A DNA stretch of 64,000 nucleotides, taken from the NCBI GenBank assembly GCA_030057915.1, contig JASGUC010000057.1:48841-112840 (forward strand). Reading direction: 5' to 3'. Origin of the DNA: Pseudomonadota bacterium (GTDB taxonomy: Bacteria > Desulfobacterota > Syntrophia > Syntrophales > UBA8958). Position numbers and translations under genes: made by a program. Positions 566-62,479 of the stretch are shown in pieces (the stretch's first letter is position 1; every line of letters begins with the position of its first letter). Below the pieces are notes generated by a model. The model saw only the letters and a list, made by a program, of their open reading frames with translations. It made no database searches and had not been told where the DNA came from.

Positions 566-937
566 ATGCCGACGATAAATCAGTTGGTCCGCAAGGGCAG
601 GATCAAAATGGAGGAAAAAACCAAGTCCCCGGCGCTGGTGGGCTCGCCGCAGCGGCGGGGGGTGTGTGTCCGGGTCTATACATCGACCCCCAAGAAACCC
701 AACTCGGCGTTGCGCAAGGTCGCCCGGGTGCGTCTGACCACCGGCTACGAAGTGACCTCCTATATCCCCGGCGTGGGGCATAATCTTCAGGAACACTCCG
801 TCGTCCTGGTCCGGGGGGGGAGGGTGAAGGATCTGCCGGGGGTCCGTTATCACATCGTGCGGGGCACCCTCGACGCCGTGGGCGTCCAGGGCAGAAAGCA
901 GGGGCGATCGAAATACGGGGCCAAGAAACCGAGCTAA
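566..937 (+). CDS. rpsL: 30S ribosomal protein S12
   Basis: [12 protein letters not shown]...; 123 aa; GGAGG Shine-Dalgarno upstream; canonical position after rpoC. Confidence 0.97.
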
Positions 938-953
938 ACGGGGATAGATCATC

Positions 954-1424
954 ATGCCGAGAAGACGAGAGATTGCAAAAAGAGAGATCATGCCTGATCC
1001 CAAGTACAAAAATAAGATGGTGGCCCAGTTCGTCAACAATCTTTTGAAGCAGGGGAAGAAGAGCACCGCGGAGGCGATCCTATACGGGGCGTTTGACATC
1101 ATAGAGAGACGGGTCAAGGAGCCGCCGGTGGAGGTGTTCGAAAAGGCCCTCGGCAACGTGAAGCCGGTGATCGAGGTCAAGTCGCGCCGGGTGGGCGGCT
1201 CCACCTACCAGGTGCCCACGGAGGTCCAGCCGTCGCGGCGGATGGCGCTGGCGATCCGCTGGTTGATAACCAACGCGAAGGAACGGGCGGAGAAGACCAT
1301 GAAGGAAAAATTAGCGGCGGAACTAATCGACGCCGCCAACAATAGAGGCGCGGCGATCAAAAAGCGGGAGGCCGTGCACAAGATGGCGGAGGCCAACAAG
1401 GCCTTTGCCCATTATCGGTTCTGA
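954..1424 (+). CDS. rpsG: 30S ribosomal protein S7
   Basis: [18 protein letters not shown]...; 156 aa; immediately follows rpsL. Confidence 0.97.
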
Positions 1425-1507
1425 GGACATTCAAAGCAGGAGATTGCGGGAGCAAAGGGTCACAAACATATAAGAGATTTTTCAACAGACGAAGGAGGTA
1501 AGTAGAG

Positions 1508-2701
1508 ATGGCCAAGAAAAAATTTGAAAGGACGAAGCCGCATCTGAACATCGGCACCATCGGTCACGTGGATCACGGGAAGACGACCTTGACGGCGGCG
1601 ATTACCAAGCACTTGTCCAAGAAAGGTTTCGCCGAGTTCAAGCCCTTTGACTCCATCGACAACGCCCCGGAGGAAAAGGAGCGAGGCGTTACGATCAATA
1701 TCACCCACGTGGAGTACGAAACGGCGAAGCGGCACTACGCCCACGTTGACTGCCCCGGCCATGCCGACTACATCAAGAACATGATCTCCGGCGCCGCCCA
1801 CATGGACGGAGCGATCCTCGTCGTCGCGGCCTCCGACGGACCCATGCCCCAGACCCGCGAGCACATCCTCCTGGCCCGCCAGGTCCAGGTGCCTTATATG
1901 GTTGTTTTCATGAACAAGGTAGATCTGGTTGACGATCCGGAACTCCTCGACCTGGTCGAGCTGGAACTACGAGAACTCCTCAAGGAGTATCAGTTCCCCG
2001 GCGATGACATCCCCATCATCCGCGGCTCCGCTCTGAAGGCTCTGGATGCCGACGATCCCGATTCTGAGGATGCCAAGCCCATCTGGGAACTCATGAATGC
2101 GGCGGATTCCTATATCCCGGAGCCGGAGCGCGTTCTGGACAAGCCCTTCCTCATGCCCATCGGGGACGTCTTTAGCATCTCCGGCCGCGGCACCGTGGTC
2201 ACGGGCCGGGTGGACCGGGGGATCATCAAGACCGGCGAGGAAGTGGAGATCGTCGGGATTCGTCCCACCTTCAAGACGGTCTGCACGGGCGTGGAGATGT
2301 TCCGCAAGACCCTGGATGAAGGCCGGGCCGGCGACGACATCGGCGTGCTGCTCCGGGGCACCAAGCGGGAGGAAGTGGAAAGGGGCCAGGTGGTGGCCAA
2401 ACCCGGTTCCATTACCCCTCACACCAAATTCAAGGCCCAGGTCTATGTTCTCACCAAGGAGGAAGGCGGCCGTCATACCCCCTTCTTTACCGGCTACCGT
2501 CCCCAGTTCTATTTCCGGACGACCGACGTGACCGGGGTGGCCATGCTGCCGGAAGGCGTGGAGATGGTCATGCCGGGTGACAATGTGGAATTGGAGATCC
2601 ACTTGATTACCCCCATCGCCATGGAGGAACAGCTTCGCTTCGCCATCCGGGAAGGCGGCCGGACCGTCGGGGCGGGCGTTGTCAGCAAGGTGATCGAATA
2701 A
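1508..2701 (+). CDS. tuf: Elongation factor Tu
   Basis: [11 protein letters not shown]1 motif, DCPGHADY and NKVD motifs; 397 aa; AGGAGG upstream. Confidence 0.97.
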
Positions 2702-14046: not shown

Positions 14047-14179
14047 GAGGCCTCTGAAAAACGACCCGTCCTGTCATGTCGGGCTTGAGGCGGCATCCAG
14101 AAGATGCTTGAAAGCGCTGGATGCCCGCTTTCGCGGGAAGGGCAAAAGGAGGTTTGCGAAGCGCTTGCGCAAAGGTCTC
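14047..14179. mobile_element. 133-bp TIR-bounded mosaic element (chimeric C-left/B-right arms) in the map-infA spacer
   Basis: The termini are GAGGCCTCTGAAAA and TTGCGCAAAGGTCTC. The interior modules CCCGTCCTGTCATGTCGGGC and CTGGATGCCCGCTTTCGCGGGAAGGGC match arms of copies at 47568 and 54819. Confidence 0.65.
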
Positions 14180-35409: not shown

Positions 35410-35541
35410 GAGACCTTTGAAAACCGTCGTTCCCAAGTCCCTGTCGTCATCCCAGTGGACGCCGGAATGCTGTGTTTTCAAGTAATTCCCGACTGCGGAT
35501 TTAACCGGGGCGCAAGGAGAACGTAGATTTTCAAAGGTCTC
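35410..35541. mobile_element. 132-bp TIR-bounded mosaic element, subfamily A (best-preserved termini)
   Basis: GAGACCTTTGAAAA at 35410 and its exact reverse complement TTTTCAAAGGTCTC at 35528-35541. It ends 17 bp before tRNA-Ser(GGA). Confidence 0.75.
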
Positions 35542-36039: not shown

Positions 36040-36216
36040 CCTTCGTCATGCCCGGGAAAGCGGGCAACCGCCTTTTGTCATGCCCGAGAAGGCGGCAATC
36101 CCGGACATCCTTTCGTCATTCCCGCAATCGCCTGGCGGGAATCCCGTGTTTGCAAGCATCTTCCGGATGCCGTCTTCAGCCCGGCATGACGAGACAGGTC
36201 GTTTTACAAAGGTCTT
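36040..36216. repeat. Array of three GTCAT[GT]CCCG..CGGG hairpin units plus a B-type right arm ending in TTTTACAAAGGTCTT
   Basis: Units at 36043-36068, 36075-36101 and 36113-36144, then TTCCGGATGCCGTCTTCAGCCCGGCATGACG and a TIR-like end. Confidence 0.55.
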
Positions 36217-47567: not shown

Positions 47568-47699
47568 GAGACCTTTGAAAATCCACCCATTCCTGTCGCT
47601 CCGGCAAAAGTCGGACTCCAGGACGCCTTGCCAACGCCTTATTCCAGCTTCCACGGGGATGACGACAGGGAGTCGGATAAGGATTTTTTCGAAGGTCTC
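47568..47699. mobile_element. 132-bp TIR-bounded mosaic element, subfamily C
   Basis: GAGACCTTTGAAAA ... TTTTTTCGAAGGTCTC. The interior is CCTGTCGCTCCGGCAAAAGTCGG plus CCACGGGGATGACGACAGGGAGTCGG. Confidence 0.7.
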
Positions 47700-50284: not shown

Positions 50285-50416
50285 CCGGCCGCTCAAAACC
50301 CCGGGGGAAGAAACCGCGAGTCGCCCGAGGTGTCAACCGTTCGTTGAAAACCCGGCCTTCCGGCTTCGGCCGGGGCGACGGCAGGGCGTCGGTAACAGCG
50401 TTTTTCCAAGGGCGAG
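50285..50416. repeat. Degenerate subfamily C element, inverted orientation
   Basis: CTTCGGCCGGGGCGACGGCAGGGCG is the reverse complement of the CCTGTCGCCCCGGCAAAAG module. It ends in TTTTTCCAAGGGCGAG and shares GAG with the next element. Confidence 0.45.
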
Positions 50417-50695
50417 ACCTTTGAAAAACTGCCGCCCATGCCCTGTCGGGCCTGACCCGGGATCCAGAAGATAGTTGAAGACACGAGAGCCTTGAAAATC
50501 TACGCTTTCCCGTGGCCCCGACCAAAACCGGCTTCCAGAACATCTTGGGAACACGGTATTGGTCTTCCACGGGGATGACGACAGGGAGTCGGATACGGAA
50601 TTTTTCAACGGCGTTTTCCCAAGGTCTCGACACCGGATTCCCACCTTGCCGGGAGGGGCCACGGGGAGGACACAACGGGGTTTTGCAAAGGCCTC
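50414..50695. mobile_element. Subfamily B element (inverted orientation) split by a nested insertion; reconstitutes to 133 bp
   Basis: 50414-50484 and 50634-50695 align end to end with the reverse complement of 54819-54952. GACAC is duplicated at 50480-50484 and 50629-50633. Confidence 0.75.
50485..50628. mobile_element. 144-bp subfamily C element nested inside the subfamily B copy, flanked by the 5-bp duplication GACAC
   Basis: GAGAGCCTTGAAAA ... TTTTCCCAAGGTCTC. The interior aligns with 47568-47699. Confidence 0.75.
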
Positions 50696-51728
50696 AAGGC
50701 TCGATAAGGGGTTGGCCCGCCGTCTCTTCCCGGTCCTTCCGGATGAACTCCAGAAGTTCCCTGGCAAAATCGCTCCAGAGAACGATCCGGTCGAAATCCG
50801 GGGGACAGTCCAGTTTCTGCATGAGCAGTCCGTCGCCGTCGAACCACCGGGGCAGCGCGGCGCCGAAAAAATAGCCCCGCCGTCGCAAAATGTCCACGCT
50901 CCCGCCGACCCACGGCTGGGTCAAGTTCAGAAACGCCTGGAAAACCACGGCATTCCTTTCCTTTGCCCGTCCTTCCAATTCCTCGATCCGGGCGGAAAAA
51001 TCTCTTCCGGAGCTGGAAAAAGTCATCCGCGCCACCCCGGCGGACTCATAGATCTGCAGCTCCGCCTCGGTCGTCGCGTCCGACGGCGCGGTTTCCTCCG
51101 GCAAGGCCGAGAGGCGGAGTTCCCGGCGATCATCCAGTCGGGCGTATATGCGCCGCAAGATATCCTCGTATTCCCGGGGCAGGAAGATTCGATGCGCCTT
51201 GGGAATGAAGCAGCGAAATACACACAGGGTTGCCACACGCCCCGGGTCGTCTGCCTCGTTGGCGTAGGCCTCCGCGGGCATGAGGGCCGCCTCGATCCCG
51301 GTTTCGAGGTAGCGACTGGCGTCGCAGGCCTTCTGCAGATGGACGTGATTGCAGATGGCTTCGCCGAAGAGCTCCTCGATATGCCGTTTGTCGGGGATGA
51401 ACCGACGGTGAAGGAAGTCGGTCAGATATTGATTGACCCCGGCATTTCGCCATTCCTTCAAAACGAGACCGGCGCCCCACTCATACAGGTTTTTTGCGGA
51501 GGCATGGCGAAACAGATGGGTCGCGCCGATGATTTTGCCCTCCGGACCGCGGGCAACGATGGAATAGATGCGGCCCTCCCCGACGGCCGCCGCCAGTTCT
51601 TCAGGTTCGTAGAAGGTTCGGACGGGATAGCCCTCGCCATAAACGCTCCGAAAAAGAGCGGCGATCCCTTCTCCGTCCCCCGGGCGAAATTCTCCCACGG
51701 AATAGTTGGTCGGTCCATTTGACGCCAT
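50694..51728 (-). CDS. GNAT-family N-acetyltransferase with an uncharacterised C-terminal domain
   Basis: 344 aa. The N-terminal about 130 aa has the GNAT pattern (FRPGDGEGIAALFRSVYG...IIGATHL...GAGLVLKEWRNAGV). The stop codon overlaps the repeat terminus by 2 nt. Confidence 0.6.
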   Translation of the reverse strand: MASNGPTNYSVGEFRPGDGEGIAALFRSVYGEGYPVRTFYEPEELAAAVGEGRIYSIVARGPEGKIIGATHLFRHASAKNLYEWGAGLVLKEWRNAGVNQYLTDFLHRRFIPDKRHIEELFGEAICNHVHLQKACDASRYLETGIEAALMPAEAYANEADDPGRVATLCVFRCFIPKAHRIFLPREYEDILRRIYARLDDRRELRLSALPEETAPSDATTEAELQIYESAGVARMTFSSSGRDFSARIEELEGRAKERNAVVFQAFLNLTQPWVGGSVDILRRRGYFFGAALPRWFDGDGLLMQKLDCPPDFDRIVLWSDFARELLEFIRKDREETAGQPLIEP

Positions 51729-54262: not shown

Positions 54263-54395
54263 GAGTCCATTTCGATACCCAGTTGTGTCCTCCCCATGGT
54301 TCTTCCCGGGAAAGGGGGGAGCCAGTGTATTCAACTATTTTCCGGATGCCGGGTCAGGCCCGGCAAGGCATGGACGGCGGTTTTTCAAAGGTCTC
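54263..54395. mobile_element. 133-bp TIR-bounded mosaic element, subfamily B
   Basis: GAGTCCATTTCGATACCC...CCAGTGTATTCAACTATTTTCCGGATGCCGGGTCAGGCCCGGCAAGGCATGG...TTTTTCAAAGGTCTC. Confidence 0.7.
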
Positions 54396-54818: not shown

Positions 54819-54952
54819 GAGGCCTTTGCAAAACCCCGTTGCGTCCTCCCCCTGGGCCTTCCCGAAAAAGTGGGGAAACCAGTGTCTTCGACTATTTTCT
54901 GGATGCCGGGTCCAGCCAGGGAGGGCATGGGCGGCAGTTTTTCAAAGGTCTC
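54819..54952. mobile_element. 134-bp TIR-bounded mosaic element, subfamily B (reference intact copy)
   Basis: GAGGCCTTTGCAAAAC ... GTTTTTCAAAGGTCTC; central GTGTC-TTCGA at 54882-54891. Confidence 0.75.
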
Positions 54953-55002
54953 TTCCCGGGGATGACGGAAGGGGGTTGGTGAGGCAATTGTTCAAGGGTC
55001 TC
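54953..55002. repeat. Half-unit (right-arm type)
   Basis: TTCCCGGGGATGACGGAAGGGGG...TTGTTCAAGGGTCTC; near-identical core to 25570-25604. Confidence 0.5.
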
Positions 55003-56905: not shown

Positions 56906-57253
56906 GAGGCCTTTGCGAAACCCCGTCGCGTCCTCCCCATGGCCCTTCCCGGGTAAGTGGGAAACCAGTGTCTTCAACCCAAATTTTCCATCAGGAGGTT
57001 TCCGCCCTCTCTAGGCGACGCCGCAGATGGCGGCGGCAAGGATTTCCGGATGCTGTCTCAAGGAAACCATCAGAAATTCTTTATCGATTTCATTATGTCT
57101 CCTTCGCCATGCGACCCGTTGGCCCATGACCCAGGGGCGTCGCGCCATGAATCATGGACCCGTGAACCATCCAATAGAAAATTTGGGTTCAAATATTCTC
57201 TGGATGCCGGGTCATGCCCGAGAGGGCATGGGCGGCGGTTTTTCAAGGGCCTC
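56906..57253. mobile_element. Subfamily B element split by a 210-bp insertion of a different TIR family; reconstitutes to 133 bp
   Basis: 56906-56977 and 57193-57253 align with 54819-54952. TTCAA is duplicated at 56973-56977 and 57188-57192. Confidence 0.75.
56978..57187. mobile_element. 210-bp MITE-like element, second family (TIR CCCAAATTTTC / GAAAATTTGGG), 5-bp duplication TTCAA
   Basis: Perfect 11-bp terminal inverted repeat that extends imperfectly to about 25 bp. Lower GC than its surroundings. No long ORF. Confidence 0.75.
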
Positions 57254-60914: not shown

Positions 60915-61121
60915 AAGACTTTTGAAAAACTACCCTTTCCTGTCGCCCCGGCAAAAGGCCGGGGTCCGGGACATCGGGCAGGCACAGGGGCCTGCTATAC
61001 ATCGGGCAGGCACAGGGGCCTGCTATACATCGGGCAGGCACAGGGGCCTGCCCCTACACAATCTTCCGGCTTCGGTCGGAGCGACGACGGAGAGTGCCAA
61101 GCGGCGTTTTTCAAAGCTCTC
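60915..61121. mobile_element. 207-bp subfamily D element carrying three tandem 28-bp hairpin units
   Basis: AAGACTTTTGAAAA ... TTTTTCAAAGCTCTC. The interior has CCCCGGC-AAAAG-GCCGGGG, then 3 copies of CATCGGGCAGGCACAGGGGCCTGCTATA. Confidence 0.7.
60972..61055. repeat. Tandem array, 3 x 28 bp, each unit a GGGCAGGC-ACAGGG-GCCTGCYC hairpin
   Basis: Units at 60972, 61000 and 61028. The first two are identical; the third differs at its end. Confidence 0.85.
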
Positions 61122-62300: not shown

Positions 62301-62479
62301 GAGACCCTTGAAGATATGCCCTTTCCTGTCGCCCCGGCAAAAGGCCGGGGTCCGGGACATCGGGCAGGCACAGGGGCCTGCCATACATCGGGCAGGCACA
62401 GGGGCCTGCCCCTACACAATCTTCCGGCTTCCGCCGGCATGGCGATGGGACGCCTGAGGCGGCGGCTTTCAGAGGTCTC
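62301..62479. mobile_element. 179-bp subfamily D element with two 28-bp hairpin units; overlaps the ribD 3' end
   Basis: GAGACCCTTGAAGA ... GCTTTCAGAGGTCTC. About 110 bp are near-identical to 60931-61070 except for unit number. Confidence 0.7.

Follow-up and report, generated by a model that had tools for sequence, protein, structure and literature searches.

Did a small mobile element transpose into another at the intergenic locus 50356-50702, and if so, which kind of transposase could have been responsible? The window, i.e., the whole stretch of 64 kb of DNA that was analysed here, belongs to a metagenome-assembled genome (MAG) of a probably Syntrophales-like bacterium, and the initial annotation had described within it a C-type element lying inside a B-type element, with the pentamer GACAC on both sides. 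At NCBI the MAG carries the label "Pseudomonadota bacterium" (locus tags QM278_, contig of 146 kb), and one of its enzymes has a cluster mate, at 90% identity or more, whose name is Syntrophales or Syntrophobacterales. This arrangement is confirmed, and all the coordinates and sequences given for it hold. In our reading, a C-type MITE very probably transposed into a B-type MITE with a 5-bp target-site duplication (TSD), an IS5-family DDE transposase acting in trans.

The nested anatomy can be followed base by base. The outer B element is divided into a left arm (50414-50484, plus strand, 71 nt), which starts with the terminal inverted repeat GAGACCTTTGAAAA, an exact match to the family consensus, and a right arm (50634-50695, plus strand, 62 nt) ending in TTTGCAAAGGCCTC; 63 of the 71 and 53 of the 62 positions, respectively, are identical to the reverse complement of the intact B copy at 54819-54952, which served as reference. 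As had been claimed, the two arms align end to end with this reference (116/133 identical) without any indel at the junction, the sole gap being 1 nt in a C-run located 6 nt downstream of it. Between the arms sits a complete 144-nt C-type MITE (50485-50628, plus strand), bearing the family terminal inverted repeats at both ends (GAGAGCCTTGAAAA at the start and TTTCCCAAGGTCTC at the end), each with 2 mismatches out of 14 relative to the consensus. The first GACAC constitutes the last 5 nt of the outer left arm (50480-50484) and the other directly follows the insert (50629-50633); the pentamer is single in intact B copies. Removal of the insert together with one GACAC restores a B element of the canonical 133 nt, whose reconstructed centre reads ...GTTGAAGACAC and then directly CGGATTCCC. 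When both pentamers are kept, the element measures 138 nt and the alignment takes 139 columns, with 5 unaligned bases. Furthermore, the GACAC repeat cannot be extended by one base on either side, and thus the duplication is exactly 5 bp; in the window, flanking 5-mers match perfectly at a background frequency of 0.0015.

The insert itself is a canonical 132-nt element lengthened by 12 nt through tandem duplication of the right terminal motif (...TTTTTCAACGG followed by CGTTTTCCCAAGGTCTC). It displays about 70% identity to other copies in the window, such as 47568-47699 and the reverse complement of 35410-35541, and therefore did not arise recently from any of them; over its right 48 nt, identity to 47648-47695 (family D2) is 92%, and its predicted single-strand DNA fold has a z-score of -3.5. 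Regarding coding or regulatory content, there is no annotated CDS between MDI9571293 and MDI9571294, the interval that holds the nest, and no ORF of the nest region has a family match. Rfam searches, both at gathering thresholds and at E up to 1, gave no match in the region and only two tRNAs elsewhere, and the promoter and terminator scan of the nest yielded terminators in numbers not above the shuffled expectation.

The outer B element is flanked in turn by AGGGC (50409-50413) and AAGGC (50696-50700), a 4/5 match. Next to it, at 50356-50413 (plus strand), lies the right-hand portion of a C-type element that is older and degenerate, and whose last two bases (TC) are now found at 50701-50702: the segment 50300-50413 joined to 50701-50702 aligns with the right ~60 nt of both 60915-61121 and 47568-47699, as far as the terminal ...AAGGGCTC, and the left end of this older element is degenerate. 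Judging from this alignment, the outer B element is itself an insertion, located 2 bp inside the right end of the older C-type element, and the locus thus has three layers. The sequence establishes the order of events: the old C-type element was there at the beginning, the B-type element then entered 2 bp from its right end (AGGGC/AAGGC, with one base mutated since), and finally a C-type element entered the AT-rich centre of B, leaving the GACAC repeat that is still perfect. Joint copying of B with a neighbouring half-unit (50364-50413 versus 54953-55002) was considered and rejected, since the two fragments stand in opposite relative orientation. On the right side of the locus, the TGA stop of the minus-strand ORF 50697-51728 consists, as read from the sequence, of the last T of the duplicated pentamer and the GA of the B terminus; without B, this frame would extend ~43 codons through the older element.

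Besides the outer element, three B-type copies occur in the window, namely the reference copy (54819-54952, minus strand, 134 nt), a second uninterrupted copy (54263-54395, minus strand, 133 nt) with a degenerate left terminus and flanks GTGGC / ATGGC (4/5), and a fourth, interrupted copy (56906-57253, plus strand) split by a 210-nt element at 56978-57187. The reconstructed outer B is identical to 54263-54395 in 109/133 positions and to the reconstructed 56906-57253 in 114/133, and pairwise identity among the four copies is 81-87% (13-19% differences). Where the junction falls in the outer element, the other three copies carry a single GACAC or TACAC each, so the pentamer is target sequence, and the suggestion that it might belong to an internal module was not upheld. 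The fourth copy was interrupted in a similar manner, as removal of its insert and of one TTCAA yields a B copy of 133 nt: TTCAA flanks the 210-nt element on both sides (56973-56977 and 57188-57192) as a perfect 5-bp duplication, 5 bp away from the position homologous to the GACAC site. This 210-nt element, which has an 11-nt terminal inverted repeat (CCCAAATTTTC), is unrelated to the GAGACC-type elements, is single-copy in the window, recurs in none of the fetched loci and has no Rfam match.

All these B and C copies belong to one family, whose consensus consists of 14-bp terminal inverted repeats, GAGRCCTTTGAAAA, at both ends. With up to 3 mismatches allowed, 45 occurrences of its terminus were counted in the window, versus 8.7 expected, and none of 100 shuffles reached 45; by pairing the termini, at least 14 full-length elements were recognised in the 64 kb, in addition to solo ends and fragments. 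The full-length elements measure 132-144 nt, except for two of 179 and 207 nt that are longer due to an internal 28-bp tandem repeat; the closest full-length relative of the insert in the window is the C-type copy at 47568-47699 (plus strand, 132 nt), with perfect or near-perfect termini. Overall, window copies are 60-87% identical to each other. Both elements with the 28-bp repeat (CATCGGGCAGGCACAGGGGCCTGCTATA) are C-type, with 3 units at 60915-61121 versus 2 at 62301-62479. At 36040-36216, a solo right end follows three tandem hairpin modules of ~30-40 bp (CCTTYGTCATKCCCG...GCGGGMAAYC), and similar modules of the form GTCAT-CCCG...CGGG-AAT are found inside many window elements; modules of the GTCATTGCGAG type are also present within elements of 128-133 bp in other genomes (L043, L058, L089 and L118). 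All the elements have ordinary chromosomal genes on both sides, such as nrfA, ribD, vorB-like genes and those for a cupin and an MFS transporter. Elsewhere in the window (566-2701), a str/S10 ribosomal-protein operon has S12 and S7 directly followed by EF-Tu, with no EF-G gene between, and the same S12-S7-EF-Tu order is found in Logan contigs from other runs (L246/L247). Short (MITEs measure about 50-500 bp), devoid of a transposase gene, sharing common termini and a fixed 5-bp TSD, and dispersed in multiple copies, the window family has the features by which MITEs are recognised. The GACAC repeat is perfect, yet the insertions are old and the event is not recent, because the insert termini are diverged from the consensus at 2 of 14 positions, a 12-nt duplication has accrued, identity to other copies is ~70%, and B copies differ by the percentages given above.

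Duplication of 5 bp was found to be a property of the family. The initial annotation had stated that the family transposes, or did, with a 5-bp TSD, and this is supported by flanks in the window, in other genomes and around autonomous relatives. It had also held that a lack of duplications at other copies would speak against the claim; upon inspection, such duplications are present and the refutation failed. Within the window, one of the 14 elements, the insert, has a 5/5 flank match and six have 4/5, including the outer B and two other B copies, which gives 7/14 at 4/5 or better versus a background of 0.02 (binomial P about 5e-9); five of the 14 match at 2/5 or fewer. Other genomes were scanned for GAGACCTTTGAAAA...TTTNCRAAGGYCTC, one genome per species and with perfect termini required, giving at least 117 loci. 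Among the matches listed, 58 of 118 elements are flanked by perfect 5-bp repeats and 31 more by repeats matching at 4/5 (~90 genomes); repeat lengths of 2-4 and 6-9 bp were not enriched among these 118 listed elements, and none of the 118 had a repeat in the control with flanks shifted by 10 bp. The 58 perfect targets in this listed set share a palindromic preference, with A at -2 (35/58), a purine at position 1 of the duplication (43/58), a pyrimidine at position 5 (45/58), and then a purine (48/58) and T (33/58), a symmetry such as a dimeric transposase should leave. With its first purine and last pyrimidine, GACAC conforms to the R...Y pattern of these targets.

The listed loci are mostly from MAGs of Desulfobacterales and other deltaproteobacteria, with a few Neisseria/Kingella genomes and two archaeal-labelled MAGs. 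The latter (L038 and L079, labelled 'archaeon' and Bathyarchaeota) have elements bearing these bacterial-type termini, which could reflect either mis-binning or real cross-domain presence. Among them is a 142-bp MITE with identical 14-bp termini, with ~100 listed copies (L005-L121) in at least ~90 species-level genomes of Desulfobacterales and other deltaproteobacteria. It is unusually uniform across species, averaging 91% identity to one consensus and 85% pairwise, values for which the requirement of perfect termini favours young copies. It resembles the window elements in termini, 5-bp duplication, similar size and intergenic location; in contrast, its interior is AT-rich and unrelated, and it is far more uniform than the window copies. 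A literature search found no description of the 142-bp element or of such elements in sulfate reducers or syntrophs, and a plasmid collection searched with the 142-bp consensus gave no match.

The termini also lead to autonomous elements. The terminus of ISNme1, an IS5-family element of N. meningitidis, is GAGACCTTTGCAAAA, which is also that of the MITEs derived from it, and termini related to GAGACCTTTGCAAAA are given for ISPg1 and several MITEs (PMC4596501, Table 2). Among the sequences retrieved here, full-length IS1106-like elements from viral contigs measure 1219-1235 bp, have the same termini and encode transposases of 335-336 aa. The elements of L265, L262 and L267 have the termini GAGACCTTTGCAAAA, and that of L266 has the variants GAGACCTTTGCAATA on the left and GAGACTTTTGCATAA on the right. 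Of four full-length elements whose flanks were compared, including the interrupted 1372-bp element of L267, two have perfect duplications (GGCCT in L265 and AAGTT in L266), L267 has 4/5 and one has none. The two transposases that were scanned score 224 bits (L265) and 261 bits (L262) against the IS5-family model NF033581 of NCBIfam, for which the cut-off is 140. Likewise, an N. gonorrhoeae chromosome carries 660-bp elements with these termini and an internally deleted transposase matching NF033581 and DUF772, whose homologues are named IS1106 or IS5-family transposase; one of these deletion derivatives is flanked on both sides by ATGCC, and two 181-bp N. gonorrhoeae MITEs with the same termini have perfect 5-bp duplications. 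The 181-bp MITE, we assume, may be the published ATR element. This chromosome, one source of the IS1106-type elements described here, is NZ_CP119140.1 (L256-L260), a 2.17-Mb N. gonorrhoeae sequence with only 12 annotated features that is mislabelled in PLSDB as plasmid p2022NG-0076_1; NZ_CP119142.1 is likewise a chromosome entered there as a plasmid.

Termini and the 5-bp TSD of the window elements thus match those of full-length IS1106-like elements; the window elements are MITEs, and the enzyme that mobilised them in trans was most likely an IS5-family DDE transposase. The 64-kb window holds no transposase gene or full-length element with these termini; terminus pairs 0.4-5 kb apart with matching flanks were absent from the window, the 117 genome loci and the 120 viral loci, and no ORF recurs across the fetched loci. 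Distant relatives of the IS1106 transposase were examined as a possible parent and set aside, since their termini are related but different (GAGACTGTTGCA and AAGACCTCTGCACAAC) and none could be assigned to the MAG or to any named genome of Desulfobacterota. Beyond the 14-15 nt of the termini, no similarity was found between the window elements and Neisseria-type elements or other loci, so that the true parent, if there is one, has to be a different member of the IS1106/ISNme1-type clade.

Comparison with known systems places the window family within a recognisable kind of element. The terminal inverted repeat of the IS1106/ISNme1-type elements of Neisseria is identical to that of the window in 14/15 positions (GAGACCTTTGAAAA versus GAGACCTTTGCAAAA), and one end of the B elements bears the C variant GAGGCCTTTGCAAA, as in the Neisseria type. 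These elements and their derivatives also share the 5-bp duplication, measured on L265, L266, L258 and L187, and the derivatives are small and non-coding, as those of the window are. On the other hand, the interiors are unrelated, and the window elements are GC-rich, 132-144 nt long, and hosted by a Syntrophales-like MAG instead of a betaproteobacterium. IS1126/ISPg1 makes 5-bp duplications, a piece of background that is not used as evidence here. In P. gingivalis, MITEPgRS/MITE464 and BrickBuilt have ISPg1-type termini with the core GAGACC(T/A)TTG, are attributed to an IS5-family parent and nest in mobile elements; in addition, MITEPgRS and BrickBuilt contain internal tandem repeats of variable copy number, like 60915-61121 and 62301-62479 in the window (PMC2575886, PMC4596501). 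The P. gingivalis MITEs differ from those of the window in host phylum, length and internal sequence, and the irregular flank duplications of BrickBuilt, of 2, 4 and 5 bp (PMC4596501), are unlike the uniform 5 bp of the window family. The Correia elements of Neisseria (NEMIS) and the enterobacterial REP/BIME sequences resemble the window family in being abundant, short, intergenic and palindromic. Correia elements differ, however, in their 26-bp termini and in duplicating TA; neither terminal inverted repeats of this kind nor target duplication is found in REP elements. Nested MITE insertions are themselves well known. The closest relatives in kind are the MITEs of Neisseria and Porphyromonas with attributed IS5-family parents, and the interior and host of the window family are new.

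Alternative explanations for the nest were weighed against the same evidence. Because the sequence is that of a MAG, the assembler could have linked reads of distinct repeat copies, in which case the nest would be absent in the cell. Short-read Logan contigs from at least 8 sequencing runs end at window positions 50440 or 50666, 27-30 nt inside B on each side, reaching 30 nt into the outer right arm from the neighbouring gene; L001-L004 are 100% identical to the window where compared. Both inner junctions, and with them the interior of the nest, are thus seen in one MAG assembly only. Chimeric joins, however, need common k-mers, and the B centre (…GTTGAAGACAC) and the insert ends (GAGAGCC…, …GGTCTC) share none; moreover, a chimera would not give a clean 5-bp host duplication or a host that reconstitutes to exactly 133 nt, and a second nested case with the same geometry is found 6 kb away, all of which makes an artefact very unlikely. 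As for the empty site, a 24-mer over the reconstructed B centre had 0 matches in JGI metagenome contigs; a 24-mer from the unique flank likewise had 0, and hence the organism is absent from that collection and the empty-site zero is uninformative. We find it extremely improbable that GACAC...GACAC with its 144 nt is a variable internal module of a longer B variant, arisen by recombination and spread by copying: the family is indeed mosaic, with half-units common to several elements (14047-14179 is B-like on the left only) and with solo ends and internal tandem modules at 36040-36216, 54953-55002 and 60915-61121, but the segment is a complete element with both termini, C-type over its full length, that is absent from the other three B copies, in each of which the pentamer is single host sequence, and 5 bp is exactly the duplication length of the family.

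Entry independent of a transposase, by template switching or by microhomology-mediated repair with GACAC as the microhomology, could be entertained for a single event in a window without a transposase. Nevertheless, the insert is bounded exactly by the family termini, which microhomology-mediated capture would not respect, and the 5-bp repeat recurs at differing sequences, with a palindromic target preference, in the 58 of 118 listed relatives, leaving this route with a minimal probability. Finally, the GC-rich, imperfectly palindromic sequences, their internal hairpin modules (e.g., CGTCATGCCCGGGAAAGCGGGCA) and their intergenic clustering are reminiscent of REP/BIME-like units handled by a RAYT (IS200/IS605-type) or of structural RNA genes. 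Transposition of the RAYT type, which is single-stranded, leaves no target duplication, in contrast to the fixed 5-bp duplication observed here, and the termini match a DDE-type IS5-family element; there are also no Rfam matches, and the fold z-scores of B are weak (-0.7 and -1.5). Both versions of this proposal are scarcely credible.

Transposition of the C-type MITE into the B-type MITE, as the process behind the GACAC event, and the identity of the acting transposase are what we infer from these comparisons. The proposed mechanism involves an IS5-family DDE transposase (IS1106/ISNme1-like, of the NCBIfam IS5_4 type) encoded elsewhere in the genome, which would bind the 14-bp termini, cut the target with a 5-bp stagger and insert the element there; gap repair would then produce the 5-bp target-site duplication.

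Of the window's four B copies, two have been interrupted, at homologous positions 5 bp apart, by unrelated elements and both with 5-bp duplications; the chance of two insertions falling within 5 bp in a 133-bp element is ~0.08 under uniformity. The site lies in the AT-richest part of B, in a genome of 61% GC, and in predicted B folds, with weak z-scores, it falls in or beside the largely unpaired middle of a long imperfect hairpin. The B centre might accordingly be a preferred landing site, with MITEs serving as safe-haven targets, defined by structure or composition, that collect insertions; we consider this rather unlikely. If true, safe-haven targeting would explain the three-layer nest at this locus.

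Taken together, the locus provides direct sequence evidence that an abundant and undescribed repeat family of an uncultured Syntrophales-like bacterium consists of transposon-derived MITEs, and fixes both its termini and its 5-bp TSD. Termini and duplication length link this family to the IS1106/ISNme1-type elements of the IS5 family known from Neisseria, and MAGs of deltaproteobacteria widely carry MITEs with such termini. These MITEs have consequences for genomes and for their assembly, given that they alter gene ends, as in ORF 50697-51728 with its stop formed at the B junction, and break short-read assemblies, all Logan contigs at the locus ending within them. The event is ordinary for such elements and the general understanding of transposition is unchanged; the known anatomy of the family will aid annotation and the finishing of MAGs.
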